NCBI GenBank assembly: GCA_016791205.1 | Contig: JAEUNH010000128.1 | Coordinates: 4,594-68,593, forward strand | Direction: 5' to 3' | Length of the DNA stretch: 64,000 bases | Source: Rhodocyclaceae bacterium | Lineage (GTDB): Bacteria > Pseudomonadota > Gammaproteobacteria > Burkholderiales > Rhodocyclaceae | Shown here: in pieces, positions 3-57,120 of the stretch | Numbering within the stretch: position 1 is the first letter of the stretch | Layout of the letters: the number at the start of each line of letters is the position of its first letter | Notes under the pieces: generated by a model | The model's input: only the letters and a program-made list of their open reading frames with translations | Database searches by the model: none | Told to the model about the DNA's origin: nothing | Translations under genes and position numbers: made by a program

Positions 3-776
3 CTCGCCGTGTCACGGAGACCGACTTTTTTCGCCAGGCGCCTGGCCGGCCTCGGCTATGCCGCCTGGTGCTGGACGGTATTCGCGGCGCTCGGCCTGCC
101 GGTGGCGGTCTTGCTGACCGTGCTGCGCCGGCCCGCCGCCGGCCGCCGTCTGGCGCGCGGCGCGGCGCGGCTGTTCCTGGCCCTCGCCGCCATGCCGCTG
201 CGGGCGCAGGGCCTGGAGAATCTGCCGCGCGCTCCGCACCTGCTGCTGATCAACCACACGAGTTATTTCGACATCGTCGCCCTCACCGCGGCGCTGCCGC
301 CCGACTATGTCTTCGTCGCCAAGCGCGAACTGGTGCGCCAGCCCTTCCTGCATGCCTGCCTGCGCGGCCTCGGCACGCTGTTCGTCGAACGCCACGAGGC
401 GGCCAGAAGCGCCCAGGACGTCGAGGAGGTCGTCGCCGCCCTCGGTGGCGGCGCGCGCCTGGCGCTTTTCCCCGAGGGCACCTTCTCGCGCGAGACCGGC
501 CTCAAGCCATTCCGCATGGGCGCCTTCGTCGCCGCGGCGCGCGCCGGCGTGCCGGTGGCGGTGGCCGGGCTGCGCGGCTGCCGCCTCATCCTGCGCGACA
601 GGACCTGGCAGCCGCGCCATGGCCAGCCTGAAATCGAGGTCGGCGCGGTGCTGCGGCCCGACGGCGCCGATTGGGCCTCGGCCGTGCGTCTGCGCGAAGC
701 CGTCCGCGCCGAGATGCTGCGCCTGTCCGGCGAACACGATCTGGGCGGTTACCTGCCCGATTTGCCGGCCCCGTAG
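3..776 (+). CDS. PlsC-type acyltransferase domain, probably the 5'-truncated C-terminus of a longer protein
   Basis: NHTSYFD (HX4D), FVAKREL and LFPEGT motifs; frame is open from the window edge. Confidence 0.8.
   Translation, partial: LAVSRRPTFFARRLAGLGYAAWCWTVFAALGLPVAVLLTVLRRPAAGRRLARGAARLFLALAAMPLRAQGLENLPRAPHLLLINHTSYFDIVALTAALPPDYVFVAKRELVRQPFLHACLRGLGTLFVERHEAARSAQDVEEVVAALGGGARLALFPEGTFSRETGLKPFRMGAFVAAARAGVPVAVAGLRGCRLILRDRTWQPRHGQPEIEVGAVLRPDGADWASAVRLREAVRAEMLRLSGEHDLGGYLPDLPAP
5..29 (+). repeat. Dispersed 25-bp motif, copy 1 (CGCCGTGTCACGGAGACCGACTTTT)
   Basis: Matches 8 other copies read from the sequence. Confidence 0.9.
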
Positions 777-832
777 GCGCTCACCCGCCGTGATAAAATC
801 GCTTTTTTGTTCAACCCGTTAAGCCTTCTCCC

Positions 833-2080
833 ATGTTTCCCAGAAAAAACACCCTCGCCAAGGTCGACGCCGAGCTGTATACCGCGATCGAAGCCGAAAA
901 CCGCCGCCAGGAAGAACACATCGAATTGATCGCTTCCGAGAACTACGTTTCCTGCGCGGTGCTCGAGGCGCAGGGCTCGCAGCTCACCAACAAGTACGCC
1001 GAGGGCTATCCCGGCAAGCGCTACTACGGCGGCTGCGAGCATGTCGACGTCGCCGAGCAGCTGGCCATCGATCGGGCGAAGAAACTGTTCGGCGCCGACT
1101 GCGCCAACGTCCAGCCCAACTCCGGCTCGCAGGCCAACCAGGCGGTGTTCTTCGCCTTCCTCAAGCCGGGCGACACCATCCTCGGCATGAACCTGTCGAT
1201 GGGCGGACACCTGACCCACGGCATGCCCCTCAATATCAGCGGCAAGTGGTTCAACATCGTGCCCTACGGCCTCGACGCCAAGGAAGAGATCGACTATGCC
1301 GAGATGGAGCGGCTGGCGCGCGAACACAAGCCCAAGCTCATCATCGCCGGCGCCTCGGCCTACGCCCTGCGCATCGACTTCGAGCGCTTCGCGAAAGTCG
1401 CGAAGGAAGTCGGCGCCATCTTCATGGTGGACATGGCGCACTACGCCGGCCTCATCGCCGCCGGCGTCTATCCGAACCCGGTGCCGCACGCCGACGTCGT
1501 CACCACCACCACCCACAAGACCCTGCGCGGTCCGCGCGGCGGCCTGATCCTCATGAAGGCCGAGCATGAGAAGGCCATCAACTCGGCGATCTTCCCCGGC
1601 ATCCAGGGCGGCCCGCTGATGCATGTCATCGCGGCCAAGGCGGTGGCATTGAAGGAGGCCATGACCTCGGAATTCCGCGACTACCAGGAGCAGGTGCTCG
1701 CCAACGCCCGCGTCATGGCGCGCGTGCTCTCCGAGGAGCGCGGCCTGCGCATCGTCTCCGGCCGCACCGAGAGCCACGTCTTCCTGGTCGACCTGCGCGC
1801 CAAGAACCTCACCGGCAAGGAAGCCGAGGCGGTGCTCGGCCGCGCCCACATCACGGTGAACAAGAACACCATCCCGAACGATCCGCAGAAGCCGCTGGTC
1901 ACCTCCGGCATCCGCATCGGCTCGCCGGCGATGACGACGCGCGGCTTCACCGAAATCGAGGCCGAAACCGTCGCCCATTTGATTGCCGACGTGCTGGACC
2001 ACCCGAATGACGAGGCGGCCATCGCCAAGGTGCGCGGCAAGGTGGCGGAGCTGTGCAAGAAGTATCCGGTTTACGGCTAA
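833..2080 (+). CDS. glyA: Serine hydroxymethyltransferase
   Basis: [36 protein letters not shown] (PLP lysine). Confidence 0.98.
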
Positions 2081-2086
2081 GAAGCC

Positions 2087-2566
2087 ATGAAGTGTCCCTT
2101 TTGTTCTGAAGCCAATACCCAGGTGATCGACACCCGGGAGAACGAGGAAGGGGACACCGTCCGCCGCCGCCGCCGCTGCCTGGCCTGCGACAAGCGCTTC
2201 ACCACCTACGAGCGCGTCGAGCTGCGCATGCCGCTCGTCGTCAAAAAGAACGGCAGCCGCGCCGACTACGATCGCGACAAGCTGCTGGCCAGCCTGATGC
2301 TGGCCCTGAGGAAGCGCCCGGTCACCACCGAGAGCATCGACGCCGCCATCGAGCGCATCGAGGAGCGCCTGCTTGCCAGCGGCGAGCGCGAGGTGCCCAC
2401 CGAGAAAGTGGGCGAGCTGGTGATGCGCGAGCTGCGCAAGCTCGACAAGATCGCCTACGTGCGCTTCGCCTCGGTGTACCGCAACTTCGAGGACGTCGAG
2501 GAGTTCCGCGAGGCGATCCGCGAAGTGAAGAAGCCGCGTACGCCGCGGCGCCCCCGCAGCGCCTGA
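2087..2566 (+). CDS. nrdR: Transcriptional repressor NrdR
   Basis: MKCPFC...RRRRRCLAC zinc ribbon, ATP cone, AYVRFASVY; glyA-nrdR-ribD synteny. Confidence 0.97.
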
Positions 2567-2578
2567 CTGGAACCTTTC

Positions 2579-2645
2579 ACCACAGAGACACGGAGGCACA
2601 GAGAAAAATCTTATGTCTTGCTCTGTGTCTCAGTGTCTCTGTGGT
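2579..2645. repeat. Intergenic inverted repeat (25-bp arms, 17-nt spacer), REP/MITE-like
   Basis: ACCACAGAGACACGGAGGCACAGAG (2579-2603) pairs with CTCTGTGTCTCAGTGTCTCTGTGGT (2621-2645), 2 mismatches. Confidence 0.85.
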
Positions 2646-2655
2646 TAATGGGTTT

Positions 2656-3744
2656 ATGTTTTCGGCACACGACCACGAATTCATGGCCCGCGCGCTGCGG
2701 CTGGCGGAGCGGGGCCTCTATACCACCACCCCGAATCCGCGCGTCGGTTGCGTGCTCGTCCGCGACGACGCCGTCGTCGGCGAGGGCTGGCACGAACGCG
2801 CCGGCGAGGCGCATGCCGAGATCCACGCCCTCAACGCCGCCGGAAACCTTGCCCGCGGCGGCACCGCCTACGTCACCCTCGAGCCCTGCAGCCACCACGG
2901 CCGCACGCCGCCCTGTGCCGGGGCCCTGATCGCGGCCGGCGTGGCGCGCGTGGTGGCGGCGATGCGCGATCCGAACCCGCAAGTGGCGGGGCAGGGGCTG
3001 GCGCAGCTTGCCGCCGCCGGCATCGTCGTCGCCGACGGCCTGCTGGCGCAGGAGGCGCGCGAGCTCAACATCGGCTTCGTCTCGCGCATGGAACGCGGCC
3101 GCCCCTGGCTGCGCCTCAAGCTCGCCGCCAGCCTCGACGGCAAGACGGCCCTGAACAACGGCAGGAGCCAGTGGATCACCGGGCCGGAGGCGCGCCGCGA
3201 CGGCCATGCCTGGCGCGCCCGCGCCTGCGCCATCCTCACCGGCGCCGGCACGGTGCGAGACGACGACCCGCGCCTGAACGTGCGCGACGTCGAGACTTCC
3301 CGCCAGCCGCTGCGCGTGGTGGTGGACAGCCACTTCGAGACGCCGCCGACGGCACGCATCCTCGAAGGCGGCAAGACGCTGCTGGTGGCGGCGAAGGAGG
3401 ATGCGCCGAAGATCGCCGCGCTGCGCGCGGCCGGCGCCGAGGTGATCGTCCTGCCCAACCCGCAAGGGAAGGTCGACCTCGCGCGGCTGATGGCGACGCT
3501 GGCCGGGCGCGGCGTGAACGAGCTGCACGTCGAGGCCGGCCACAAGCTCAACGGCTCGCTCATGCGCGAAGGGCTGGTCGACGAGCTGCTGCTCTACTAT
3601 GCGCCGACGATCCTCGGCAGCGGCCGCGAGATGTTCCCGCTGCCGGAGATCGCCGACCTTGCCGGCCGGCGCGACCTGAAAATACTGGATCTGCGCCGCG
3701 TCGGCGCCGATGTCCGGATTCTGGCGCGGCCGCTGGCGGCATGA
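2656..3744 (+). CDS. ribD: Bifunctional riboflavin deaminase/reductase RibD
   Basis: PNPRVGCV, HAEIHAL, TLEPCSHHGRTPPC, SLDGKTAL, VEAG; ATG at 2656. Confidence 0.97.
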   Translation: MFSAHDHEFMARALRLAERGLYTTTPNPRVGCVLVRDDAVVGEGWHERAGEAHAEIHALNAAGNLARGGTAYVTLEPCSHHGRTPPCAGALIAAGVARVVAAMRDPNPQVAGQGLAQLAAAGIVVADGLLAQEARELNIGFVSRMERGRPWLRLKLAASLDGKTALNNGRSQWITGPEARRDGHAWRARACAILTGAGTVRDDDPRLNVRDVETSRQPLRVVVDSHFETPPTARILEGGKTLLVAAKEDAPKIAALRAAGAEVIVLPNPQGKVDLARLMATLAGRGVNELHVEAGHKLNGSLMREGLVDELLLYYAPTILGSGREMFPLPEIADLAGRRDLKILDLRRVGADVRILARPLAA

Positions 3745-4747: not shown

Positions 4748-6630
4748 GGCGGGGCCCATTTTTTGCGGCGGGACTGGCCCGTGGCCTGGCGCTGTTCCTG
4801 GGGCTGTTCGCGGCCGCCGTGGCGGCCGCCGCCGATCCGGTCGAATTGCGCCGCGAGCGGTCCGAGGTGGCGTTGTTCGGCCACATCGAGGTGCTGGAAG
4901 ACCCCGATCGCCGTCTTGCGGAGACCGACTTTTCCCCGCAGGGCGCTACCCCCGGGATGGCGGCCTTGCCCGGTCGCCTGCACGCCTTCGGGTATTCGGC
5001 CAGCGTCTTCTGGGGGCGCCTTGCGCTGGTCAACACCGATCCGCAGCGGGTCGACTGGATGCTGGTCTATCGCCAGGCCGCGGTAGACCGCATCGAGGTA
5101 TTCATCGCCCGCGAAGGCGGCGCCTGGCAGGCGCTGGCGCCCTACGCGGCGGGCCGGTCGCGGCAAGTATTCGGCGGCATGCGCTACCCGATATACGGCG
5201 TCAGCCTGGCGGCGGGTGAGCAGGCGGCGCTCTTGATCCGCATCGAGAACACCTCGCCGATCCGCTTTCCTCTGGCGCTGCAGGAGATGAGCGCGTTCTT
5301 CATGCAGGACCGCATCGGCCGGCTGTGGATGGGACTGGCGCTGATGATCCCGCTGGTGGTGGCTGTCTACATGCTGTTCCTGTGGGGCGCCATGCGCGAC
5401 CACAGCCTGCCTTTGTATATCGGCTTTCAGCTCTCCACCATGATCGCCTCGGCCTGGATCGGCGGCTTTCTCGCCGAGGCCCTGCCCATGCTGCCGCGGC
5501 GGGCCCTGGCCGGAATCGGTGTCGGCGCCTTCAATCTCGGCCTCTGTCTCGGCCTGCTGCATGCCCGCGCCTTCCTCAAGCTGCCGCGCCGGCATCCACG
5601 CCTGGCGCGTGCCCTGCTGCTGTGCGCGCCGGCCTTCCCGCTGATCGCCGCTTTGGAGTTCGCCCACAGCGCCGCCGCCCGCCCCCTGACCATCGTCGCC
5701 ACGGTCGGCGTGGTGCTGTTCGTGTTCGGCGCCAGCCTGCAGGCCTGGCATCGGCGCCTGCCGCTGGCCGGCATCTACGCCCTGGCCTGGGGCAGCCTGC
5801 TGCCGGGCGTGGCGAGCCTCGTGGCTTCGCGGCTGAACCTGATCGACCACGGTGCGGTGACGCAGGCCCAGCTGGCGGCCGGCGCCTCCTCCTCGCTGAT
5901 CTTCGGTTTCGCCCTGGCGGCGCAGATCCGCCGGCGCGAGGCGCGCACCCGGACGGTGATGGCCCAGAGCTGGCTGCTCAACGCCGCCCATCACGACCTG
6001 CGCCAGCCCCTGCAGTCGCTCGGCATCTATCTCGAACTGCTGCGCGGCGAGGCCGAGCGGCCCGCCCAGGTGCGGGCCCTCGCCGGGCGCATGGAGGCCG
6101 CCTACAACGGCCTGGCCGATTTCCTCGACGGCATGCTGGAGCTGTCGCGCGCCGCGACGGGGCGGCACGAGCCGCAACCCAGGCGCCTGCGGGTGGATGA
6201 CCTGCTGGCGCCGCTGGTGGAGGAGTACCGCCGGCTGGCCGCCGCCGTCGGCCTCGAACTGCGTCATGTGCCCTGCCATGCCTGGATCGAGAGCGACCCG
6301 CGCCTGCTCGAGCGGATCGTGCGCAACCTGCTGGCCAATGCCGTGCGCTACACCCAGCACGGCCGCATCCTGGTCGGCTGCCGGCGTCGCGGCGGGCGTC
6401 TGGCCATCGAGGTCTGCGACACCGGCCCGGGCATCGCCGCGCGCGATCAGGAACGGATGTTCGCCCGCTACACCCAGGGCGAGGAGGCGCAGAACCGGCA
6501 GGCCGGCTTCGGCCTGGGCCTGGCCATCGTCCGCCAGCTGGCCGAGCGGCTCGGACACGAGGTGCGCCTGCATTCGGTGGAAGGGCGCGGCTCGCGTTTC
6601 GCGGTGCTGGCGGCGCGCCTCGACGGGTAA
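4744..6630 (+). CDS. Sensor histidine kinase with 7TM-DISM-like input
   Basis: Signal peptide, extracellular domain, about 7 TM helices, HDLRQPL H-box, NLLANAVRYT, DTGPGI, GFGLGL. Confidence 0.9.
   Translation: MRRGPFFAAGLARGLALFLGLFAAAVAAAADPVELRRERSEVALFGHIEVLEDPDRRLAETDFSPQGATPGMAALPGRLHAFGYSASVFWGRLALVNTDPQRVDWMLVYRQAAVDRIEVFIAREGGAWQALAPYAAGRSRQVFGGMRYPIYGVSLAAGEQAALLIRIENTSPIRFPLALQEMSAFFMQDRIGRLWMGLALMIPLVVAVYMLFLWGAMRDHSLPLYIGFQLSTMIASAWIGGFLAEALPMLPRRALAGIGVGAFNLGLCLGLLHARAFLKLPRRHPRLARALLLCAPAFPLIAALEFAHSAAARPLTIVATVGVVLFVFGASLQAWHRRLPLAGIYALAWGSLLPGVASLVASRLNLIDHGAVTQAQLAAGASSSLIFGFALAAQIRRREARTRTVMAQSWLLNAAHHDLRQPLQSLGIYLELLRGEAERPAQVRALAGRMEAAYNGLADFLDGMLELSRAATGRHEPQPRRLRVDDLLAPLVEEYRRLAAAVGLELRHVPCHAWIESDPRLLERIVRNLLANAVRYTQHGRILVGCRRRGGRLAIEVCDTGPGIAARDQERMFARYTQGEEAQNRQAGFGLGLAIVRQLAERLGHEVRLHSVEGRGSRFAVLAARLDG
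4909..4933 (+). repeat. Dispersed 25-bp motif, copy 2 (CGCCGTCTTGCGGAGACCGACTTTT)
   Basis: Inside histidine kinase gene, read as RRLAETDF. Confidence 0.9.
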
Positions 6631-6634
6631 GGGT

Positions 6635-7824: not shown

Positions 7825-7830
7825 TCGCCG

Positions 7831-9225: not shown

Positions 9226-9244
9226 GGTTGCTCCGTTGGCGGGT

Positions 9245-12787: not shown

Positions 12788-13225
12788 ATGCGCCGCCTCG
12801 CCGTCCTAGGGGGACTGACTTTTCTGGCGGCGTCCGCCTGGGCGCTGGAGTACCGCTCGGTCGCCGAAGCCGGCGCGGTGATGTTCGATGCCCCCTCGCA
12901 GAAGGCCCGCCCGCTGTTCGTCGTGGCCCGCGGGACGCCGGTGGAACTGGTGGTCAGCCTCGGCGAATGGCTCAAGGTGCGCGACGCCGCCGGCGACCTT
13001 GCCTGGATGGAAAGAAAAACCCTCGCCGAACAGCGCATGCTGATCGTCACCGCCCGCAGCGCCGAAGTGCGGGCCCAGGCCGAGGCCGGCGCTGCGCTGG
13101 TGTTCGAGGCCGAGAAGGACGTGGTCCTGGAACTCCTCGAAGCCGGCCCGCCGGGCTGGGCCAGGGTGCGCCATCGCGACGGCCAGTCCGGTTTCGTCCG
13201 CGCGAACCAGGTCTGGGGTCTCTGA
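12788..13225 (+). CDS. Exported bacterial SH3-domain protein
   Basis: Signal peptide, two SH3b-like repeats (WLKVRD, WARVRH); secB-SH3-gpsA synteny. Confidence 0.85.
12799..12823 (+). repeat. Dispersed 25-bp motif, copy 3, degenerate (CGCCGTCCTAGGGGGACTGACTTTT)
   Basis: Same spacing of CGCCGT and GACYGACTTTT; 2 mismatches to consensus. Confidence 0.7.
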
Positions 13226-20921: not shown

Positions 20922-21409
20922 GATCGCCGCGAATCAAAAGTCGGTCTGCGCAACACGGCGTTTCGATCGTCACCGCCATCGTCCTGATCGTCATCCTGGC
21001 AGCGCTGGCGGCTTACTCTGTCACGGTGTTCCAGTCGCAGCAGAGCGCCGCGGCGCTCGACGTGCTGGGCGTGCGGGCCTACCAGGCGGCCCAGGCCGGG
21101 CTCGAGTGGGGCAGCTGGAACGTCCTGCGCAACCCGCCGCGGCCGGCGCCGCCGGCGCCCGACGTGCCGCCGGCTTGCCCGCCTTCGCCGACCACACTGG
21201 CGATGCCGGTCGGCACCACGCTGGCGGCATTCACCGTCACGGTGACCTGCGGCGTGACCAGCCACAGCGAGGCCGGCGAAACGGTTACCTTGTACACTTT
21301 CACCTCGACCGCCTGCAACCTGGCCGGGCCCGGCGGCTGCCCGAATCCGGCGGCGCCGGCCAACGAGTACGTCGAGCGGCAGGTGCAGGCCAGAGTGGAG
21401 CGACGATGA
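20918..21409 (+). CDS. mshP: Minor pilin, MshP-like
   Basis: HG|VSIVTAIV, RAYQAAQAGLEWG, YVERQV. Confidence 0.85.
   Translation: MRSPRIKSRSAQHGVSIVTAIVLIVILAALAAYSVTVFQSQQSAAALDVLGVRAYQAAQAGLEWGSWNVLRNPPRPAPPAPDVPPACPPSPTTLAMPVGTTLAAFTVTVTCGVTSHSEAGETVTLYTFTSTACNLAGPGGCPNPAAPANEYVERQVQARVERR
20936..20960 (-). repeat. Dispersed 25-bp motif, copy 4 (CGCCGTGTTGCGCAGACCGACTTTT on minus)
   Basis: In the mshP leader, read as KSRSAQHG. Confidence 0.9.
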
Positions 21410-29998: not shown

Positions 29999-31147
29999 AT
30001 GAGCCTCATCAACCAGATGCTCCAGGACCTCGAATCGCGTCGGGCGGCGCTCAACGGGGATGCGGGCATGCCGAACGAGATCCGTTCGCTGCCTCAGCAA
30101 CGCCCCCCGGCGCTGCGCGCGAGTTTCCTGGCAGGCGTGGCCGCGATCCTGGTGACGGGACTGGGCGGTGTCTGGTGGCTGGCGGATGCCGAGAAAGCGC
30201 CTGTCCCGGCCGCGCCGGCGATCCCGCTGAAGCCCATTTCCCAACCTTCGGCCCTGGTCGCTCCGCCACCGCCGGTGGCCGTTCCGGCGGCGGAGCCGCA
30301 GCCTGTCCCCGCCCAGGAACAGGCGAGCCCTTCGCCACCGACGTTGCCGGCAGAGGAGAGAAAACCGCCTTCGTCCGCGTCCGATACGCCACAGTTGAAA
30401 GTCGCCGCCGAACTGGATGTCGCGGCCCGGGCCGGCAAGCCCGCACCCGTCGCCGGCAAGGGCCGGGAAGGCAAAGAGAACGCCGCACGGCCGGTCCCCG
30501 CACCGGTCCAGCAAGCGGCCGCCGAACCGACAGGCGCAGACGATACGCGCATCGAGAAGAAGATGCGCATGACGAGCGCCAGGGAGCGGGCCGAGAACGA
30601 GTATCGGCGCGCCATCGGCCTGGTCAATCAGGGGCGCATCCAGGACGCCATGGCGGTGCTGCGCGGCGTTCTCAGCGAGGATGCGGGCCATGTCGGCTCC
30701 CGGCTGGCGCTGTTCGGTCTGCTGCTCGAACAGCAGCGCTTGGACGAAGCCCAGGCGTTGCTGGCGGAATCGCTGCAGCGCGATCCGGCCCAGCCGCAGC
30801 TGGCGTCGCGGCTGGCCCGCCTGCAGCTCGAGCGGGGCGACGCGCGGGGGGCCCGCGAGACCCTCGACAAGGCGGCCGGCGCCGCGCAGGACAACCCCGA
30901 TTTCCGCGCCTTCCGCGCCGCCGTGCTGCAGAGACTGACTTTTCACCGCGAGGCCGTCTCGGAATACCAGGCCGCCTTGCGCATACTGCCGCAGGCCGGC
31001 GTGTGGTGGATGGGCCTGGGCATTTCACTCGAGGCGGAAGGCAGGCTGGCCGAGGCGCGGGAGGCCTATCAGCGCGCCAAAGCCACCGGTGCGCTATCCG
31101 TCGAGCTGAGTGCCTTCGTCGAGCAGAAGCTGAAGCGCCTGCAGTAG
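29999..31147 (+). CDS. mshN: TPR protein MshN
   Basis: MSLINQMLQDLE, TM, Pro-rich linker, TPRs, WWMGLGISLE. Confidence 0.9.
   Translation: MSLINQMLQDLESRRAALNGDAGMPNEIRSLPQQRPPALRASFLAGVAAILVTGLGGVWWLADAEKAPVPAAPAIPLKPISQPSALVAPPPPVAVPAAEPQPVPAQEQASPSPPTLPAEERKPPSSASDTPQLKVAAELDVAARAGKPAPVAGKGREGKENAARPVPAPVQQAAAEPTGADDTRIEKKMRMTSARERAENEYRRAIGLVNQGRIQDAMAVLRGVLSEDAGHVGSRLALFGLLLEQQRLDEAQALLAESLQRDPAQPQLASRLARLQLERGDARGARETLDKAAGAAQDNPDFRAFRAAVLQRLTFHREAVSEYQAALRILPQAGVWWMGLGISLEAEGRLAEAREAYQRAKATGALSVELSAFVEQKLKRLQ
30919..30943 (+). repeat. Dispersed 25-bp motif, copy 5 (CGCCGTGCTGCAGAGACTGACTTTT)
   Basis: Inside mshN, read as AVLQRLTF. Confidence 0.88.
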
Positions 31148-31155: not shown

Positions 31156-31869
31156 TCAGGAATTCGGCAGGGTCCGCGCCGCCACCCAGTTTTCCACCCG
31201 TCTGGCCCCGTGCAGCTTCAACATGCGGGCGAACTCGTTCAGCGTCGCTCCGGTGGTCATGACGTCGTCGACCACGGCGATGGTCTTGCCTGCCAGGTCG
31301 ACGCGGCACTCGAAGGCTTGGCGGATGTTGGCCTGGCGTTCCTTCCATGGCAGGCTGGCCTGGGGTGCGCTGTCCGCCACCCGCAGGGAGGCCTCCGCGA
31401 GGAGCGGCAGGCCGAAATGCCGGGCCAGCGGCCGGGCCAGTTCCTGGGCCTGGTTGAAGCCGCGCTCCTTCATGCGTTGGGCGGAGAGAGGCAAAGGGAT
31501 GATGCAGTCGACCCCGGTCGTGTCAAGGTGGCGGGCCAGGGCCTCGGCCAACCAGCCGGCGAGGGGCAGGCGGTGGCGGTACTTCAGCCCCTGCACGATA
31601 TGCTCCACCGGGAAGGCGTAGCGGAAGACGGCGGAGGTGGCGTCGAAAGCGGGCGGCGAATTCTGGCAGGCCCCGCAGCGCAATCCATCCGCCGCGGGCA
31701 GGGCGCAGACGGGGCAGGACGGACCTTCCAGATAGGGCAGGTCGGCCTCGCAGGCGGCGCAGACCAGCCGGTCGCCGCTGGCCTGGCCGCAGACGAAGCA
31801 GTCCTGCGGCAGCAGCCGGGCCAGGCCCGCAATTGTCGTCCGGTAAATTGACAAGCCCTGCCCCTTCAA
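31156..31869 (-). CDS. comF: ComF-family competence protein (zinc ribbon + PRTase)
   Basis: Four Cxx[18 protein letters not shown]; start uncertain. Confidence 0.9.
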
Positions 31870-32885: not shown

Positions 32886-33688
32886 TGCGGTCTGACTTCG
32901 GCCGGGCGGCGGCTTCCTACGACGAGGCCGCCGTGCTGGCCAAAGAAGTCGGTCTGCGCATGACGGCGAAGCTGGATTTCATCAAGCTCGCGCCGGCCCG
33001 TGCGGCCGATATCGGCTGCGCCACCGGCGACGGCATCCGCCTGTTGCAGGCGCGCTACCCGCAGGTCCTCCCCCTGGCGGTCGACTACGCACCGGCTATG
33101 CTGGCCGAAGTGTCGCGCCGCGTTCCCTGGCTGGATCGGCTGCGCCGTCGCGCGCCGCGCTGTCTGGCCGCTGACGTGCGGGCGCTGCCCCTGGCCGGCG
33201 GCAGCCTCGGACTGGCCTGGTCGAACCTGATGCTGCATTGGCTCGACGACCCCTTGCCGGCCCTGCGGGAACTGCATCGCGTGCTCGAGACCGGCGGCCT
33301 GCTGCTGTTCAGCGTGCTGGGGCCGGACACCCTGCAGGAGCTGCGCGGCGCCGGTGCCACGACGCTGCGGCGCTTCCACGACATGCACGACCTGGGCGAC
33401 ATGCTGCTGGCAGCCGGATTCGCCGATCCGGTGATGGAGATGGAGAAGATCGCGTTTACCTATGCCAACCCGCGCGGCCTGCTGCGCGACCAGCGCCGGC
33501 TCGGCGTGCGCGACGGACTGTTCGGGCCGATGGGCTTCCGCGAGGGACGGCGCCTCTTTCGCGCCTGGGAATCACAGAGGTGCGATGGGCGTCTGCCTGC
33601 CACCTTCGAGATCGTCTACGGCCATGCCTGGAAAGCCGAGCCGAAAGCTTCAGCGGACGGCCGCGCGATCATCCGCTTTCATAAATAG
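32885..33688 (+). CDS. bioC: Malonyl-ACP O-methyltransferase BioC-like
   Basis: TGATG coupling to bioB; FGRAAASYD, DIGCATG, SNLMLHW, DMHDLGDML, FEIVYGHAW. Confidence 0.85.
   Translation: MRSDFGRAAASYDEAAVLAKEVGLRMTAKLDFIKLAPARAADIGCATGDGIRLLQARYPQVLPLAVDYAPAMLAEVSRRVPWLDRLRRRAPRCLAADVRALPLAGGSLGLAWSNLMLHWLDDPLPALRELHRVLETGGLLLFSVLGPDTLQELRGAGATTLRRFHDMHDLGDMLLAAGFADPVMEMEKIAFTYANPRGLLRDQRRLGVRDGLFGPMGFREGRRLFRAWESQRCDGRLPATFEIVYGHAWKAEPKASADGRAIIRFHK
32944..32968 (-). repeat. Dispersed 25-bp motif, copy 6 (CGCCGTCATGCGCAGACCGACTTCT on minus)
   Basis: Inside bioC, read as EVGLRMTA; 2 deviations from consensus. Confidence 0.82.
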
Positions 33689-37169: not shown

Positions 37170-38360
<1,191 letters not shown>

Positions 38361-38365: not shown

Positions 38366-38962
38366 TCAGGCGGGCCTGGAAAGGCAGCCGGCCAGCAGCA
38401 TCGGCCACTGCTGCGACCACTGCGCCATCGGCTCCCGGACGAAGCCGCTCCTTACGAAGGACTGCCAGCGGCCGACGACGAAGCTCAGGCACAGGTTGGC
38501 CGCGGCCGCGGCGTCCTCGCCCTGCGGCAGCTCGTGGCTGGTCGCCGCGATGCGCAGGGCCTGCTTGAGCGAGGCCTCGACGCGATCCAGCAGCTGGTTG
38601 ATGCGCGCCTGCAGGCGGTCGTCCTCGTGCACCAGGGCGTCGCCGATCAGCACCCGGGTCAGGCCGCGATTCTTCTGGGCGAAACCGAGCAGCAGGGCCA
38701 CGATCAATTCCGCCTGGCGGACACCGGACTGCTCTTCGGCGTTGATCTTGTTGATTACCGAGAACAGCCCGGTCTCGATGAATTCGATCAGCCCCTCGTA
38801 CATCTGCGCTTTGCTGGCAAAGTGACGATAGAGGGCCGCCTCGGAGACATCCAGTTTCCTGGCCAGCAGCGCGGTGGTGATCTTCTCCCCCCGCGGGTCC
38901 TGCAGCATCTCGGCGATGGTCTGCAGGATCTGCAGCTTGCGTTCCCCGGCTCTGGCGGCCAT
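38366..38962 (-). CDS. slmA: Nucleoid occlusion factor SlmA (TetR family)
   Basis: ITTALLA...VSEAALYRHF.SKAQMYEGLIEFIE; argB-linked. Confidence 0.93.
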   Translation of the reverse strand: MAARAGERKLQILQTIAEMLQDPRGEKITTALLARKLDVSEAALYRHFASKAQMYEGLIEFIETGLFSVINKINAEEQSGVRQAELIVALLLGFAQKNRGLTRVLIGDALVHEDDRLQARINQLLDRVEASLKQALRIAATSHELPQGEDAAAAANLCLSFVVGRWQSFVRSGFVREPMAQWSQQWPMLLAGCLSRPA

Positions 38963-41134: not shown

Positions 41135-41365
41135 ATGAGCGAAAATGATTGCGGGTCAAGGAGTTGCTGCGGCAATTCGGTTTGCCCGGGCTGCGGGGGA
41201 CGGTTTGATTGCGGGATGCTGGCGGGTGGGGCCTGCTGGTGCGCCGTCCTGCCGAGACCGACTTTTCCGCTCGACCCCGACAAGGGCTGCTACTGTCCGG
41301 CCTGCCTGAAGCGGAAGCTTGCCGGGCAGGCCCTCAGCGGCGCTGCGGGCCCAGCGCGAGCATGA
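41135..41365 (+). CDS. Cysteine-rich CWC family small protein
   Basis: CPGCG..FDCG...CWC...CYCPACL pattern. Confidence 0.75.
   Translation: MSENDCGSRSCCGNSVCPGCGGRFDCGMLAGGACWCAVLPRPTFPLDPDKGCYCPACLKRKLAGQALSGAAGPARA
41242..41266 (+). repeat. Dispersed 25-bp motif, copy 7 (CGCCGTCCTGCCGAGACCGACTTTT)
   Basis: Inside the CWC gene, read as AVLPRPTF. Confidence 0.9.
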
Positions 41366-46833: not shown

Positions 46834-46877
46834 CGGGCGACCAGGCCACGAGGCCGCAATTCCAGCGTCGAAACCAT

Positions 46878-47259: not shown

Positions 47260-48105
47260 TCAGTAAAGGCCCAGGTAATGCTCGGTCAATGGCTTGCCCC
47301 AGAACAGGGCGATGACGCCTGCGGCGGCCAAGTAGGGGCCGAAGGGGATGGGGATGTTGCGCCCGTGCCGGGCAAAGGCGATGAGGGCGATGCCGACCGC
47401 AGCCCCCACGATGGAGGAGGCCAGGATGGTCAGGGGCAGCATTTGCCAGCCTAGCCAGGCGCCAATGGCCGCCAGAAGTTTGAAGTCGCCGTACCCCATG
47501 CCTTCCTTGCCGGTGGCAAGCTTGAAGCCCCAGTAAACGGACCAGAGCGAGAGGTAGCCGGCGGCGGCGCCGATGACCGCGCTCCGGATATCGGTAAAGC
47601 CCCCGCCAAGATTAAGCAGCAGGCCGGCCCATAGGAGCGGGAGCGTGATGCTGTCGGGCAGAAGCTGGGTGTCGAAATCGATGAACGTCAGGGCAACCAT
47701 GCACCAGAGAAAGACCATGGCGCCGAGGCCGGCCCAGGTGGCCCCGAAGCGCCAGGCGGCGTAGCCCGACAGCACGCCGACAAGGGCCTCCACCATCGGA
47801 TAACGCAGGCCGATCGGCGCTCGGCAAGCGCTGCAGCGCCCCCTCAGGAACAGGTAGCTGAGGAGGGGGACGTTTTCCATTGCAGTGATGCCGTGGCCGC
47901 AGTGGGGGCAGCGCGAGCGCGGCGTGGCCAGGGAAAGCTTGTCGTGCTGGGGTGGGGCCTCTTCGCCGCGCAACTCGGCGCATTCGGCCATCCAGCCCCG
48001 CTCCATCATCTTGGGAAGGCGATGGATGACGACATTGAGGAAGCTGCCCACCGCCAGTCCCAGGACAGAGGCCACGGCAACGAGCCAGGCCGGGTCAGTC
48101 AGCAT
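47260..48105 (-). CDS. pilD: Prepilin peptidase/N-methyltransferase
   Basis: GSFLNVVIHRLP, two CxxC, IDFDTQLLPD, GMGYGDFKL, PFGPYL. Confidence 0.96.
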   Translation of the reverse strand: MLTDPAWLVAVASVLGLAVGSFLNVVIHRLPKMMERGWMAECAELRGEEAPPQHDKLSLATPRSRCPHCGHGITAMENVPLLSYLFLRGRCSACRAPIGLRYPMVEALVGVLSGYAAWRFGATWAGLGAMVFLWCMVALTFIDFDTQLLPDSITLPLLWAGLLLNLGGGFTDIRSAVIGAAAGYLSLWSVYWGFKLATGKEGMGYGDFKLLAAIGAWLGWQMLPLTILASSIVGAAVGIALIAFARHGRNIPIPFGPYLAAAGVIALFWGKPLTEHYLGLY

Positions 48106-48110
48106 TTCTC

Positions 48111-48135
48111 CGCCGTGCCACGGAGACCGACTTTT
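48111..48135 (+). repeat. Dispersed 25-bp motif, copy 8 (CGCCGTGCCACGGAGACCGACTTTT), intergenic
   Basis: Between pilC and pilD; differs from copy 1 at one base. Confidence 0.92.
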
Positions 48136-48150
48136 CCCGCGGGGCGGGCA

Positions 48151-49383
48151 TCAGACCACGGCACCCAGCTTGAAGATCGGCAGGTACATGGCGACCACCA
48201 TGCCGCCAATGAGCGTCCCCAGGACCACCATGATCAAGGGTTCCATCAGGCTGGACATGGCTTCGACGGCGTCGTCGACCTCCGCCTCGAAGAAGTCGGC
48301 CACCTTGCTCAGCATGGCATCGAGCTGGCCCGACTCCTCGCCGATGGAGACCATCTGGATGACCATGTTGGGGAAAACGTTGGCGTTTTGCATGGCCACG
48401 GTCAGGTTAGTGCCGGTGCTGACTTCCGACTGTATCTGCTTCGTTGCCATCTTATAGACATAGTTGCCTGAAGCGCCACCGACGGAATCGAGTGCCTCGA
48501 CCAAGGGAACACCTGCAGCAAACATGGTTGACAGGGTGCGCGCCCAGCGGGCCATGGTGGCCTTGCGGATGATGTCCCCGAAGATCGGCAGACGAAGCAA
48601 CAGTCTATCCATGACGATCTGCATTTTCTCCGAGCGCCGCCACAGATAGAAAAAGCCGTAAAGGCCGCCGCCAAGTATTCCGAAGATGATGTACCAGTGC
48701 GCAACCATGAAGTCGGACATCGCGATGACTATCAGGGTCGGCGCGGGCAGGTCGGCGCCGAAGCTCTTGAAGACGTTCTTGAATGACGGAATGACGAAAA
48801 TCATGATGACTGCCGTGATGACGATAGCCACGACGATCACGGCGACGGGGTAAAAGAGGGCGGACTTGATTTTGCTCTTGATGGCCAGTATTTTTTCCTT
48901 ATAGGTGGCCAGTCGGTCCAGCAGCGAGTCGAGAATGCCGGCGGCTTCTCCGGCGGAAACCAGGTTGCAGAACAGCGCATCGAAATACAGAGGGAATTTC
49001 CGGAATGCCTGATTCAGGGAGGATCCCGTCTCAACGTCGGCCTTGATATCGAAAAGCAGTTTTGCGACCGCCTGGTTTGCCGCGCCCTTGCCGACGATGT
49101 CGAAAGCCTGGAGAAGGGGGACTCCGGCTTTCATCATCGTGGCCAGCTGCCTGGTAAACAGGGTAATGTCTTTCTCGGTGATTTTGCCGCCGCGCTTGAA
49201 CGACTGCTTCTTGACCTTGGTGACAAGGACGCCCTGTCGGCGCAACGTGGCCTGCACGAGCGCTTCTCCGCCGGCGCGCATTTCTCCACGCAGAAGCTTG
49301 CCAGTCTTGTCCTTGCCTTCCCAGGCGAAGGTGAATTCTTTGATTCCGCTATCTCTCTTGACCGACTTGGTCGCGGTTGCCAT
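48151..49383 (-). CDS. pilC: Type IV pilus platform protein
   Basis: FTRQLATMMKAGVP, ALFYP, IGEESG, MYLPIFKLG. Confidence 0.96.
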   Translation of the reverse strand: MATATKSVKRDSGIKEFTFAWEGKDKTGKLLRGEMRAGGEALVQATLRRQGVLVTKVKKQSFKRGGKITEKDITLFTRQLATMMKAGVPLLQAFDIVGKGAANQAVAKLLFDIKADVETGSSLNQAFRKFPLYFDALFCNLVSAGEAAGILDSLLDRLATYKEKILAIKSKIKSALFYPVAVIVVAIVITAVIMIFVIPSFKNVFKSFGADLPAPTLIVIAMSDFMVAHWYIIFGILGGGLYGFFYLWRRSEKMQIVMDRLLLRLPIFGDIIRKATMARWARTLSTMFAAGVPLVEALDSVGGASGNYVYKMATKQIQSEVSTGTNLTVAMQNANVFPNMVIQMVSIGEESGQLDAMLSKVADFFEAEVDDAVEAMSSLMEPLIMVVLGTLIGGMVVAMYLPIFKLGAVV

Positions 49384-49394
49384 GTTGGGTTCCC

Positions 49395-51107
49395 CTATTC
49401 GTTTGTAGTGGCCAGAACTTCCTCGAGAGAGGTCATGCCTTGCTTGACTTTAAGCAATCCCGATTGACGCAGGTCCCGGATGCCTTCCCTTTGCGCCTGC
49501 TCGGAAATGTCAATCGAATTGCCGTTGGTCATGATGATGCGCTGGATTTCCTCGGAGATCGGCATTACCTGATAAATGCCGACCCGCCCCTTGTAGCCGC
49601 TGCCCTTGCACTTGTCGCATCCGTTGGGGCCGTACAACTGCCAGCTGCCATCGATCTCATGCTCCTGGAACCCTGCCTGGATCAGGGCTTCCATCGGTAT
49701 GGTCATGGGCTTCTTGCAGGCGCAAAGCCGGCGCGCCAGTCTTTGGGCGGTGATCAGGATGACGCTGGAAGCGATGTTGAACGAGGCGATTCCCATGTTC
49801 TTCATGCGCTCCAGGGTGGTCGGGGCATCGTTGGTATGCAGCGTGGAAAGTACCAAATGCCCGGTTTGGGCCGCCTTGATGGCGATTTCGGCGGTTTCCA
49901 GGTCGCGGATTTCCCCGACCATGATGATGTCCGGATCCTGGCGCAGGAAGGCCTTGAGGGCGACTGAGAAATTGAGCCCCGCCTTGTCGTTGACGTTGAC
50001 CTGGTTGATGCCGGGAAGGTTGATTTCGCAGGGATCCTCGGCGGTCGAGATGTTGATGCCCGGCTTGTTGAGCAGGTTCAGGCAGGTATAGAGGGATACC
50101 GTCTTGCCGCTGCCGGTCGGTCCGGTCACCAGGATCATGCCGTAGGGACGCTCGATGGCATTCATGAGCGCTTCGCGCTGGTCCGGTTCATAGCCCAGGG
50201 CATCGATGCCGAGCATGGCGCTGGAGGGATCCAGAATCCGCATGACGATCTTTTCGCCGTGCAGCGTCGGCAGGGTGCTGACGCGGAAATCGATGGCGCG
50301 GGTCTTCGACAGCACCAGTTTCATGCGGCCGTCCTGGGGCACCCGTTTCTCGGATATGTCCAGCCTGGAAATCACCTTGATGCGGGAGGCGATTTTTTCC
50401 TTGATGACGAGCGGCGGCTGGGCGACCTCGCGCAGTACGCCGTCGGTCCGGAAGCGGATCCGGTAGTATTTCTCGTAGGGCTCGAAATGAATGTCGGAAG
50501 CGCCCTCGTTGATGGCATCGAGCAGGATTTTCTGGATGAAACGGACGACGGGGGCGTCATCGACTTCGACCGCGCCGGTGTCTGCCGCCGCGGCATCCTC
50601 CGTGTCTTCGGCCAGTTCCAGATCGAGATCGTCGCCTGCCAACTCGTTGAGCTTGGTTTCCGCGGTCTCAGAGAGCTTTTGGACGATCGGAGCCAGTTTG
50701 TTGACTTCGACGACGACCGGATCGACAGCCAACCCCGTCTGAAAGCGGATTTCGTCCAGTGCTCGCAGGTTGGTCGGGTCGGCGAGCGCGACCGCGATGC
50801 GGTTGCCGCGCTTGGTCAGGGGGACGACCTGGTGATTCTGGATCAGCTTGCGATCGATGGTCTCCTTCTGGAAGTGCGACTCATCGAAGGCGTTCAGGTC
50901 GAGCAAAGGATAGCCGAAGGTTTCGGCTGCAAAGGTGGCGATGTCTTTGGCGCTGAGCCGCCCGCCGGCCATGACCTGATTGACGAAGCCCCCCCCCGAA
51001 CCGGCCCCTTGGGCGGCAAAGGTCTCGGCCTCGGCTTCCTTGAGGCGACCCTGCTGGACCAGCGCTCGGGCTAATCCACTGAGCGAAGTTTGAAGAGAAG
51101 CTGCCAT
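49395..51107 (-). CDS. pilB: Type IV-A pilus extension ATPase
   Basis: ASDIHFEP, GPTGSGKTVSLY, FLRQDPDIIMVGEIRD; ATG at 51107. Confidence 0.95.
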   Translation of the reverse strand: MAASLQTSLSGLARALVQQGRLKEAEAETFAAQGAGSGGGFVNQVMAGGRLSAKDIATFAAETFGYPLLDLNAFDESHFQKETIDRKLIQNHQVVPLTKRGNRIAVALADPTNLRALDEIRFQTGLAVDPVVVEVNKLAPIVQKLSETAETKLNELAGDDLDLELAEDTEDAAAADTGAVEVDDAPVVRFIQKILLDAINEGASDIHFEPYEKYYRIRFRTDGVLREVAQPPLVIKEKIASRIKVISRLDISEKRVPQDGRMKLVLSKTRAIDFRVSTLPTLHGEKIVMRILDPSSAMLGIDALGYEPDQREALMNAIERPYGMILVTGPTGSGKTVSLYTCLNLLNKPGINISTAEDPCEINLPGINQVNVNDKAGLNFSVALKAFLRQDPDIIMVGEIRDLETAEIAIKAAQTGHLVLSTLHTNDAPTTLERMKNMGIASFNIASSVILITAQRLARRLCACKKPMTIPMEALIQAGFQEHEIDGSWQLYGPNGCDKCKGSGYKGRVGIYQVMPISEEIQRIIMTNGNSIDISEQAQREGIRDLRQSGLLKVKQGMTSLEEVLATTNE

Positions 51108-51209
51108 AAGCTGTCGGGGTGGGCGGCGATATGCATGCCGTATTCGGTTGATAATGCCCGTCCGCCCCGGATTTGTAAAGCTATCAGTTGCTTGGCGCAA
51201 CTTGTTGAA

Positions 51210-52493: not shown

Positions 52494-52546
52494 GCGGGGC
52501 GTTCAGTCAATGCGATGCCCCAGTATCGCGGCGGGGTGGGACGCTG

Positions 52547-53374: not shown

Positions 53375-53413
53375 CTCGCAAGTCTACCTTCTTCCCGGAG
53401 CATTCGGAACATC

Positions 53414-54769
53414 ATGCTGGACACGCTTACCCAACGTCTGTCACGTGTCGTCAAGAACCTGCGTGGCCAGGCCAGGCTGACCGAGGACAACATTGCCGAA
53501 GCGCTGCGGGAAGTGAGAATGGCCCTGTTGGAGGCCGATGTCGCGCTGCCGGTGGTCCGAGATCTGATCGCCCGCATAAAAGAGAAGGCGGTTGGCCAGG
53601 AAGTGATCGGCAGCCTGACCCCCGGACAGGCACTGGTGGGGGTGGTGCACCGGGAGCTCGCGGAATTGATGGGCGGGGCCCACAGCGGTCTCAATCTGGC
53701 CGTTCAGCCTCCGGCGGTAGTGCTGATGGCCGGCCTGCAGGGCGCCGGCAAAACGACCACCACTGGCAAGCTCGGCAAGCTCCTGCGGGAGCGCATGAAG
53801 AAGAAGGTGCTGGCCGTCAGCGCCGACGTCTACCGGCCTGCCGCCATCCAGCAGCTGAAGCAGGTTTCCGAGCAGGCCGGCATCGATTTCTTCCCCACCC
53901 AGGCCAGCGACAAGCCGGCGCTGATTGCCGCGTCGGCGCTCGATTTCGCCAGGAAGCACTATTACGACGTGGTGTTGTTCGATACCGCCGGCCGTTTGGC
54001 GATCGACGAGGCCATGATGCGCGAGGTAGCCGAGCTGCATGAGGCGCTGCAGCCGGTCGAGACCCTTTTCGTGGTGGATGCCATGCTGGGCCAGGATGCC
54101 GTGAATACGGCGCGGGCGTTCAACGATGCCCTGCCACTGACCGGCGTCGTTCTCACCAAGCTGGATGGCGATGCGCGGGGCGGCGCGGCGCTTTCCGTGC
54201 GTCATGTCACCGGCAAGCCGCTGAAATTCGCCGGGGTGGGCGAGAAGCTGAACGGGCTGGAGGAATTCCACCCCGAACGCATGGCTTCACGCATTCTCGG
54301 CATGGGCGACGTCCTTGGCTTGATCGAGGATGCCCAGCGCGGCGTCGACCAGGAGAAAGCCCAGGCCTTCGCCAAGAAACTCAAAGCCGGCAAGGGCTTC
54401 GACCTGAGCGACTTCAAGGAACAGATCGGCCAGATGCGCAAGATGGGCGGCTTGTCTGGATTGCTGGACAAGTTGCCGGCCCAGTTCGCCCAGGCCGCCC
54501 AGCAAGCCGGATCACAGGTCGAGGACAAGGCGGTGCGCCGCCTTGAAGGAATCATTGATTCCATGACTCCCGCGGAGCGGATCCGGCCCGAGCTGATCAA
54601 GGCGTCGCGCAAGCGCCGCATCGCCGCCGGTGCGGGAGTTTCCGTTCAGGAAGTCAACCGCCTGCTGAACCAGTTCGATCAGACCCAGAAGATGATGAAG
54701 CAGTTTTCCAAGGGCGGCATGCAGAAGATGATGCGGGGAATGAAGGGGATGCTGCCGGGGATGCATTGA
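53414..54769 (+). CDS. ffh: Signal recognition particle protein
   Basis: GLQGAGKTT, DTAGR, TKLDGDARGG, Met-rich M domain. Confidence 0.98.
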   Translation: MLDTLTQRLSRVVKNLRGQARLTEDNIAEALREVRMALLEADVALPVVRDLIARIKEKAVGQEVIGSLTPGQALVGVVHRELAELMGGAHSGLNLAVQPPAVVLMAGLQGAGKTTTTGKLGKLLRERMKKKVLAVSADVYRPAAIQQLKQVSEQAGIDFFPTQASDKPALIAASALDFARKHYYDVVLFDTAGRLAIDEAMMREVAELHEALQPVETLFVVDAMLGQDAVNTARAFNDALPLTGVVLTKLDGDARGGAALSVRHVTGKPLKFAGVGEKLNGLEEFHPERMASRILGMGDVLGLIEDAQRGVDQEKAQAFAKKLKAGKGFDLSDFKEQIGQMRKMGGLSGLLDKLPAQFAQAAQQAGSQVEDKAVRRLEGIIDSMTPAERIRPELIKASRKRRIAAGAGVSVQEVNRLLNQFDQTQKMMKQFSKGGMQKMMRGMKGMLPGMH

Positions 54770-54805
54770 TTCGCTTGCCCTCCTCAACGGGCCTCCCCCG
54801 GGGCT

Positions 54806-55411
54806 CTATCGACTGGGCGCGCGTCCCGGCACGTAATGCCACTGCCTTTCCCAGGATGCGCGCACGGCATCCGGGTACTCGGCTCTGCCCAGACTGCCGT
54901 TGTAGCGGCCCAGCGCCCGAAACAGATCCCCCTTCTCGATATCCAGGTAATGCTTGAGGATGGTGCAGCCATAGCGCAGATTCATGCGCAGATGGAACAG
55001 GTTGTCGTTCCGGCTGCCGATCAGCTTGACCCAGAAGGGCATGACCTGCATGTAGCCGCGCGCCCCGGCCGAGGAGACCGCATACTTCTTGAAGCCGCTT
55101 TCAACCTGGATGAGCCCCAGCACCAGTTGCGGGTCGAGCCCGGCACGGGTCGCCTCGTAATGCACTGCGCGCAGGAATTCGAGTCGCTGCTCCTGGTTGG
55201 GCATGCGCTTGGCCAGCCGTTTCGACATGTCCTCCAGCCAGTTCACCGCCTCGACCGGACTGCGAAACGAGCTTGTTGGCGGCTTGCGGTCCGCGATGGC
55301 GGCATGCAGTGCTGCCTGGACACTGGCGGCCAGCGGCTCGTATTTTTGCGTGCCGGCCGCTGCCTTGTCTGCGACAAGCAACAAAAGGCAGAAAACGAAA
55401 GCCCGGCTCAC
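54806..55411 (-). CDS. SLT-domain lytic transglycosylase
   Basis: IQVESGF, GYMQVM, NLRYG, RYNG. Confidence 0.9.
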
Positions 55412-57120
55412 GCGCCTAGACGCTCGCGCATGAAGGTTCCGATTTCGGTTAGAGGCACCTTGATCGCGGCGGAGTCGCGCCGCTCCTGATATTCCACCGT
55501 GCCTTCCTTGAGTCCGCGCTCGCCGATAGTGACGCGGTGCGGTACCCCGATCAATTCCAGATCGGCGAACATCACGCCGGGACGCTCGTCCCGGTCATCG
55601 ATCAGCACATCGACGCCGGCCTTTCGCAACTCGTCGTAAAGGGCTTGTGCGGCGTCCTGCACAGACCGACTTTTACCGTAACCGATGGGGGCAATGGCGA
55701 CCTCGAAGGGCGCGATGGCGCGCGGGAAAATGATGCCGCGCTCATCGTGGTTCTGCTCGATAGCGGCACCCACGATGCGCGTGACGCCGATGCCATAGCA
55801 ACCCATTTCCATGATGCGCGGCTGGCCCGATTCGTCGAGAAAGGTGGCCTTCATGGCCTCCGAATACTTGGTGCGCAGCTGGAAAATGTGTCCCACCTCG
55901 ATGCCTCGGCAGATCGACAAGCGGCCCTTGCCATCGGGGCTGGGATCGCCTTCGACGACGTTGCGGATGTCGAGCACGTAGTCCGGTTCGCGTAGATCGC
56001 GCCCCCAGTTCACTCCCGTCAGGTGGTATCCCGCCTCGTTGGCGCCGCAGACGAAATCGCTCATTTGCGCAACCGTGCGGTCGGCGACGACAGGAATGCC
56101 TTCGCCGATGCCTACAGGGCCGATGTAACCCGGGCGACAGCCGAGAAAGCGTTCGATCTCTTCGTCGGTGGCGAAACGAAAGGGATTGAGAAAGGGCTGT
56201 TTGCCCGCCTTGATTTCATTGAGGGTGTGGTCGCCGCGAATGAGGAGCAGGAGAAACTGCTCGTCGTGCATGACGGCGATGGCCTTCACAGTCGAGGCGA
56301 GCGGCAGCTTGAGCAGGGCGGCCACGTCCTCGCAGCGGGTCTTGCCGGGGGTGGCGACCTTCTTCATCTGCTCGGCATGGCCATCGCGGGGCGTGGCCGG
56401 TGCCAGGCCTTCCGCCAGTTCGACGTTGGCGGCGTAGTCGGAATCCGGGCAGAAGGCTATGGCGTCCTCGCCGGAATCGGCAAGGACATGGAACTCGTGA
56501 GATCCGGTGCCGCCGATCGATCCCGTGTCGGCTGCGACAGCCCTGAACCTGAGCCCCAGACGGGTGAAGATGCGGGTGTAGGTCTCATGCATATTCCGGT
56601 ATTCGCGCTGCAGGTCCTCGTAGTTGGCGTGAAAGGAATAGCCGTCCTTCATGAGGAATTCGCGGCCGCGCATGACGCCAAAGCGCGGACGGATCTCGTC
56701 GCGGAACTTGGCCTGGATCTGGTAGAGATGCAAGGGCAACTGGCGGTAGCTCCTGATCTCCCGACGGACGACATCGGTGATGACCTCCTCGTGGGTGGGA
56801 CCGATGACGAAGTCGCGCTGGTGGCGATCCTGGATGCGCAGGAGTTCCGGGCCGTACATCTCCCAGCGGCCGGTTTCCTGCCACAGCTCGGCGGGAATGA
56901 CGGCCGGCATCAGCAGTTCTATCGCGCCGGCCCGATCCATCTCCTCGCGAATGATGTTCTCGACCTTGCGCAGGATGCGCAAGCCGAGCGGCATCCAGGT
57001 ATAAATGCCGCCCGCCAGCCGTTTGATCAAGCCCGCGCGCAGCATGAGTCGGTGGCTGATGATCTCCGCGTCGGCGGGTGCTTCCTTGAGCGTGGCGATG
57101 AAGAATTGCGAGGCGCGCAT
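55408..57120 (-). CDS. proS: Proline-tRNA ligase
   Basis: [34 protein letters not shown]. Confidence 0.98.
55650..55674 (+). repeat. Dispersed 25-bp motif, copy 9 (CGGCGTCCTGCACAGACCGACTTTT)
   Basis: Inside proS, read as KSRSVQDA on the coding strand; 1 mismatch. Confidence 0.87.

Follow-up and report, generated by a model that had tools for sequence, protein, structure and literature searches.

The locus examined here, a stretch of 64,000 nucleotides from a Rhodocyclaceae bacterium (assembly GCA_016791205.1, contig JAEUNH010000128.1, positions 4,594 to 68,593; referred to below as the window), raises the question of why one long word recurs nine times within it, and what might read that word. 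An initial annotation, made from the sequence alone, had described the nine copies as a bipartite site acting chromosome-wide. Re-reading of the window confirmed the position and strand of every copy, and the exact 12-mer AGACCGACTTTT in six of the nine. In almost all of the statistics that could be tested, the motif has the behavior of a DNA uptake sequence, and we infer that uptake is the biased step; at somewhat better than even, we favor the view that this 26-bp word is a putative third DNA uptake signal, long and bipartite.

Definition and abundance of the motif

In the genome that contains the window (G000; 2.80 Mb in 281 contigs, 67% GC, 87% complete), an iterated position weight matrix (PWM) gave the non-palindromic consensus tCGCCGTSYYGSGSRGACYGACTTTt. 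Its length is 26 bp (33.5 bits) rather than the 25 bp first proposed, a T at position 1 (48%) being included. Two boxes were invariant, CGCCGT and GACYGACTTT, separated by 8 bp, and the A of 'AGAC' was conserved in just 54% of sites. The boxes had been placed about one helical turn apart, but at about 16 bp centre to centre they are nearer 1.5 turns. With the genome-trained matrix the nine window copies scored 31-42 bits, including 38.7 bits for the copy at 12799 that had been termed degenerate, and the contig otherwise contained a single match of 10-20 bits.

The 12-mer AGACCGACTTTT had 132 copies in G000, among the commonest 12-mers genome-wide, and the matrix identified 495 sites of at least 20 bits. 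By our own gene calls, 337 of these were in genes, 118 were intergenic, and 40 were on gene ends. A genome scan against codon shuffles, which had been proposed as a check on the motif, showed strong in-gene enrichment: there were 337, 308, and 260 in-gene sites at thresholds of at least 20, 25, and 30 bits, compared with 10-21, 2-8, and 0-4 in five synonymous-codon shuffles. Perfect cores numbered 352, compared with 129 for all single-mismatch cores together (15 positions). Codon preference is overridden, and the proposal of a chromosome-wide, bipartite signal at the DNA level is supported.

Distribution and dialects in the Rhodocyclaceae

The strict pattern was found in 24 of the 27 other genomes of the genus and in none of the nine other genera of a first sample. 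With relaxed patterns, counts in 251 Rhodocyclaceae genomes were bimodal: 38 genomes from 14 of the 89 genera had approximately 100-830 matches, and the remainder had at most 40, like reversed-pattern controls (one ambiguous genome, G248, was counted as motif-negative). Among the dialects were CGCCGT..GACYGACTTT, CGCCGT..CRCCGACTTT, TGCCGT.., CGGCGT.., and CGSCGT..RCCAACT, and the dialects follow lineage. In a further 400 genomes of the class, one of them unpublished (G336), the count never exceeded six matches. The motif is confined to part of the Rhodocyclaceae.

A de novo search for dialects in 294 kb of G011, 147 kb of G015, and 89 kb of G023 found none, with limited sensitivity because the motif was recovered in the control G252 but not in the control G140. 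Three genomes with sites that were patchy by contig (G021, G022, and G025) were not used as evidence; they may be mixed bins, or may have received DNA that carries the motif. In plasmid DNA, motif matches were at chance level only.

Origin and placement of the sites

Within genes the motif favors particular frames: 166 of the 337 in-gene sites were in one sense frame (AVLxxLTF) and 79 in one antisense frame (KVGLRxTA). The copy in proS was retained in place by 16 of 23 orthologues from the genus, where it fixes KSQSVRDAA-like residues; motif-less relatives had other residues at this position, and G011 had a decayed copy. The orthologous proS genes align without indels: sites arise via substitution, not insertion. 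The comEC locus contained one to three sites in all 20 genomes with at least 48 strict matches and none in the six genomes with fewer.

Genes for repair, replication, and competence appeared to be favored among those that carry the motif in G000. Twenty-four such genes, first chosen by eye and then confirmed, carried 31 sites: comEC, comM, dprA, uvrA (two), uvrD, mfd, mutS, mutL, mutY, recG, priA, polA, dnaE, ligA, parC, topB, smc, rarA, xerD, phr, the uracil-DNA glycosylase (UDG) gene, rmuC, and a gene for an AddB-like nuclease. Twenty-one of the 24 were tested and had 27 sites where 11-17 were expected, an enrichment of approximately 1.6-2.5-fold (P 2e-5 to 0.02) given a gene-set size that we assumed, by our own estimate, to be 80-130 kb. 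A 1879-aa tandem (double) UvrA is encoded with three motif copies at C265:19-5658.

The orientation of the sites was almost unconstrained. In G000, 197 of 368 sites were on the G-rich strand (p = 0.19). In G003, a complete genome that starts at dnaA, the first 0.93 Mb had 65 forward and 47 reverse sites, and the 0.46 Mb around the expected terminus had 28 reverse-strand sites, which is the genome-average density; the leading-strand bias in G003 was approximately 57%. Mapping against origin and terminus, also proposed at the outset, therefore gave a mild strand bias only and no terminus gap. Sites in G000 were more evenly spaced than random (chi2 52.6, 87 df, lower-tail P = 0.0013), and there were 85 pairs 30-1500 bp apart where 118.5 were expected (P = 0.002). 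This deficit was confined to sites on opposite strands (31 pairs, 60 expected); same-strand pairs were as frequent as expected.

Such even spacing would suit the site of a nucleoid-organizing or division protein, SlmA-, MatP-, or Noc-like, distributed along the chromosome. slmA itself lies within the window (38366-38962, minus strand) and was considered as a rival reader, and a system of this kind would not need ComEA, discussed below. The SlmA-binding, matS, and Noc sites are likewise dispersed and overlap genes, but SlmA-, MatP-, and Noc-type sites are palindromes for dimers, whereas the present motif is non-palindromic, has about 500 copies, and is neither excluded from the terminus nor restricted to it. 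Loss of the motif from whole genomes of complete relatives (G011, 98%; G015, 99%) and swaps of dialect between genera would ill fit an essential architecture, and enrichment in repair and competence genes would not be expected. We consider a nucleoid protein distinctly unlikely; of the four functions first offered, DNA uptake is the best fit and nucleoid or segregation sites are a poor one.

Sites outside genes cluster past stop codons. Density was 1.58 per kb in convergent spacers, 0.62 in tandem spacers, 0.12 in divergent spacers, and 0.13 in coding sequence, so that promoter (divergent) spacers are avoided. An inverted partner box was found at only 7 of 158 non-genic sites; the many inverted-repeat terminators that are a trait of uptake sequences were not found. 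A few head-to-head overlapping copies (C35:11341, C249:3013, C268:25797, and a few more) form perfect, terminator-like hairpins ending in T-runs. The clustering past stop codons and these few hairpins are what a terminator element, a transcription-factor operator, or an RNA motif might produce, but 68% of sites are in genes, in both orientations, divergent spacers are not enriched, inverted boxes are rare, and an Rfam scan gave no family match at motif sites, which makes such an element very improbable. Sites were also depleted in the lowest-GC 5% of genome segments (9 sites, 21 expected) and in both tails of codon typicality, the latter result being partly circular because a site itself lowers typicality.

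A candidate reader in a second MSHA-like filament

In a mechanism based on uptake, a surface machine would preferentially bind environmental DNA bearing the motif. Over many rounds of uptake and recombination, point changes would have created the approximately 500 chromosomal copies and maintained them. The motif may be read by the tip pilin of a second mannose-sensitive haemagglutinin (MSHA)-like filament, with ComEC, ComF, DprA, and ComM completing the import route; without ComEA, the periplasmic step might be inefficient or served by another protein.

The protein in question is a large PilX-like tip pilin encoded outside the window (G000 C259:14972-18526) in a second MSHA-like type IV filament locus adjoining kdsD/lptC, and we tentatively infer that it is the best candidate for the reader. 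The locus (C259:10291-26200) is unannotated and embeds a histidine kinase and adenylate/guanylate cyclase pair. Its tip pilin is variable, 300-1300 aa across genomes, and the repeats of the long forms presumably resemble those of phage virion proteins. In G006 the tip-pilin gene (C2:361885-365295) appears to be broken by stops and frameshifts.

The locus was found in motif-positive and motif-negative genomes alike, but the tip protein differed. In 80 chosen genomes the full tip form accompanied the motif, and negatives matched mainly its first 250 residues. In the 251-genome sample a close tip subtype, defined as at least 90 bits to a 180-residue segment from G070, was found in 27 genomes, of which 26 were motif-positive, and in only 1 of the 213 motif-negative genomes; the other 12 motif-positive genomes had weaker, split, or no tip matches, some at contig ends. 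The adjacent pilin gene showed no sorting by motif status. The tip protein also led to motifs that had been overlooked: those of G029 and G070, near zero until the pattern was relaxed, and the CCAACT dialect in G087 and G169, with 380 and 387 copies compared with 1-4 in the control.

In the loci of the best 80 tip relatives there were 122 exact sites in 881 kb, compared with 3 for the control, and 61 of the 80 loci had at least one. Outward-pointing copies bracketed the tip gene at its 5' side in 26 of 76 loci and at its 3' side in 48 of 72. This bracketing is weak evidence because leader peptides are permissive sites, and the copies may be inherited from one ancestor. Outward copies around a variable gene could also be taken for a mobile-element remnant or target, or for a repetitive extragenic palindromic (REP)-like repeat, but the bracketing copies lie in permissive leader-peptide codons, the position matrix has no conserved flanks, and the proS orthologues are gap-free. 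The absence of flanking homology and mobile-element traits reported initially was thus borne out, and the chance of a mobile element seems almost negligible.

AlphaFold models of the tip (pLDDT, the predicted local distance difference test score, of 85 and 88) predicted two tandem pilin-like folds followed by a C-terminal legume-lectin domain. The pilin-like folds had weak similarity to many pilins (Z 3-4), and the lectin domain matched the L-type lectin 7exo (Z 20.8, root-mean-square deviation 2.4, 202 aligned). Tip pilins built in modular fashion, from tandem pilin or lectin units, occur in C. difficile (PilJ) and S. sanguinis (PilB and PilC). The tip pilin is predicted to share two pilin folds and an L-type lectin with these, without a sequence-family match, and PilJ and PilB were only weak rows in the fold comparison. 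For the N-terminal part of the tip, Foldseek gave no match and the fold search gave only pilin rows of Z 2-4; Pfam had no family for the tip sequence, an Atlas search with it returned only unnamed pseudopilin clusters, and no homologue was found on plasmids.

Two other possibilities were rejected. The minor-pilin clusters of the type IVa pilus, considered as the reader, were non-orthologous between G002 and G003, nearly site-free, and missing from the G000 assembly, and a change from R/K to Q in the tip that had seemed to track the CCAACT dialect failed with more sequences.

Weighing uptake against other biased transfer

Several observations weigh against uptake read by this tip. The motif-positive genomes are kin rather than independent cases. 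A tree of the locus machinery unites all of them in a single clade (support 1.0) that also encloses negatives, and the correlation of tip and motif consequently rests on a few independent losses; in favor of the correlation, the nested motif-less lineages (G129, basal genus-1, and G075) have other tip types. The close tip subtype is also found in two genomes that lack the motif (G011 and G246). In G012 motif density is undiminished although most of the filament locus is gone, a pattern that fits recent locus loss or a different reader, and two further motif-positive genomes (G076 and G108), with fewer sites than their sister lineages, have other tips. Covariation of the ComP kind was not seen, as none of the tip residues tracks dialect. 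The tip is net acidic (its second pilin domain is near neutral and the G011 tip is the most acidic), and this acidity together with the predicted lectin fold of the C-terminal domain would fit an adhesin. The deficit of close pairs on opposite strands only is not predicted by orientation-blind uptake.

The competence genes add to these points. G000 has comEC, comF, comM, dprA, and pilB/C/D, but motif-negative relatives also have intact comEC, dprA, and comM, so these genes do not discriminate. ComEA was not found in G000 by tblastn with six ComEA sequences or by hidden Markov model, and of the genomes compared, 4 of 37 positives and 14 of 43 negatives had a ComEA match over the cut-off. No ComP-family match was found in G000, in a search whose control also gave none. 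In Legionella, loss of comEA is reported to cut transformation approximately 100-fold without abolishing it (PMC7811196), which implies that uptake without ComEA would be weakened, not excluded.

Missing ComEA and an adhesin-like tip, acidic with a lectin fold, would be explained if another transfer step were biased: the motif would be either a pac-like signal for packaging by a gene transfer agent or transducing phage, or a cytoplasmically read signal for loading of recombination proteins, and the tip a swapped adhesin travelling with the clade. The same genome statistics are predicted. In viral contigs the G000 dialect was found in 38 stretches and another dialect in more than 130, compared with 110 for the reversed pattern; contigs with two or three copies numbered 6 among the 80 matches listed and 0 among the 80 listed for the reversed control. 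However, the viral matches were mostly single, the 65 to 47 split in G003 has no Chi-like polarity, and the tip follows the motif where the neighboring pilin does not. We regard this alternative as unlikely, though less so than a nucleoid protein.

Uptake is retained as the likely biased step. The most specific form of this reading is a third uptake self-tag of independent origin, the longest of the three and built on two specific boxes. Its reader would be a receptor of a new kind, the double-pilin/lectin tip subunit of an MSHA-like filament, whose own gene the tag flanks; the system would be largely ComEA-free, and its dialects would divide environmental Rhodocyclaceae into separate gene pools. 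Taken as a whole, this conjunction is doubtful.

Three further observations concern these loci. The filament locus of G012 (C9:6000-26000; genome 99% complete) is deleted save for a pilin fragment. comEA is patchy in the Rhodocyclaceae, being over the cut-off in 18 of 80 genomes, and in G000 rfaD and cysM are adjacent (C63:2665-4556), so comEA is absent from that position. A ProS tree scattered the motif-positive genomes but was not used as proof of repeated origins because it conflicts with the filament-locus tree; ProS of G061, G070, G108, G130, and G248 groups with distant genera, and transfer of proS is a possible reason for the conflict.

Comparison with known dispersed signals

The motif resembles Chi and the FtsK-orienting polar sequences (KOPS) in being non-palindromic and dispersed, but it is much longer and has only the slight leading-strand bias seen in G003. 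The families with known uptake specificity are closer. The uptake signal sequence (USS) of the Pasteurellaceae has a 9-bp core and two phased T-tracts in 29-32 bp (PMC3458573), with a receptor predicted as ComN/PpdA (PMC12616744). Like the USS, the Rhodocyclaceae motif is long and non-palindromic, numbers hundreds of copies, is biased in reading frame, is partly conserved among orthologues, and has dialects, and its reverse strand likewise begins AAAAGT. Unlike the USS, it consists of two G+C-rich specific boxes rather than a core with T-tracts, it forms few inverted terminator pairs, and its hosts have 55-67% GC and mostly lack ComEA. In the Neisseriaceae, the DNA uptake sequence (DUS), read by ComP, has lineage dialects, which the ComP tree follows (PMC3630211; bioRxiv 10.1101/2025.10.24.684340). 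The Rhodocyclaceae motif shares with the DUS its dialects around a conserved core, a lean to 3' spacers, and an apparent lean to genome-maintenance genes, but it is 26 bp and bipartite rather than 10-12 bp, G000 has no ComP match, and the candidate tip lacks a residue that follows dialect. By core sequence and host family, the motif is neither DUS nor USS.

Copies in the window and neighboring genes

Seven of the nine copies are on the plus strand. Copy 1 (4-29, 39.8 bits) lies within an acyltransferase-domain gene and copy 2 (4908-4933, 41.9 bits) within a sensor histidine kinase gene. Copy 3 (12798-12823, 38.7 bits) lies in the gene for an SH3-domain protein (12788-13225), where it encodes part of the N-terminal segment, which resembles a signal peptide. 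Copy 4 (20936-20961, minus strand, 39.1 bits) is directly past the stop of a pilin gene and, in our reading of the sequence, falls within the leader of the MSHA-type pilin that follows. Copy 5 (30918-30943, 39.1 bits) is in the last gene of this MSHA-type cluster, approximately 210 bp from the 3' end of a comF/gntX-like competence gene (31156-31869, minus strand) that scored below the NCBIfam cut-off. Copy 6 (32944-32969, minus strand, 31.2 bits) is antisense within bioC, and copy 7 (41241-41266, 37.5 bits) is intergenic, approximately 70 bp past the nudB stop. Copy 8 (48110-48135, 37.2 bits) is in the pilC-pilD spacer of the type IVa pilus genes pilB-pilC-pilD (47260-50972, minus strand), of which pilD encodes the prepilin peptidase, and copy 9 (55649-55674, 32.3 bits) is antisense within proS. 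The end of the window (57900-64000) is motif-free and has few typical gene calls. Rfam identified a Betaproteobacteria toxic small RNA (sRNA) at 60519-60583 and an Anti-hemB sRNA at 37174-37266.

Implications for the Rhodocyclaceae

Uptake of DNA by sequence has been reported for only two families, the Neisseriaceae and Pasteurellaceae, both host-associated (PMC1939737; bioRxiv 10.1101/2025.10.24.684340). A literature search, with subscription journals and supplements outside its scope, found no report of an uptake motif in the Rhodocyclaceae, and the motif-bearing taxa go unmentioned in the excerpt of PMC5217627 considered. Should something other than a pilin read it, the motif marks an unknown chromosome-wide signal system. 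If the uptake reading is true, uptake specificity would extend to free-living Rhodocyclaceae of wastewater and freshwater, with dialects, natural losses, and a named candidate receptor, and its origin would be testable outside pathogens. It would also show genes and proteins rewritten by a drive at the DNA level, and it would provide a tag for transforming denitrifiers and sulfur oxidizers that are hard to engineer.

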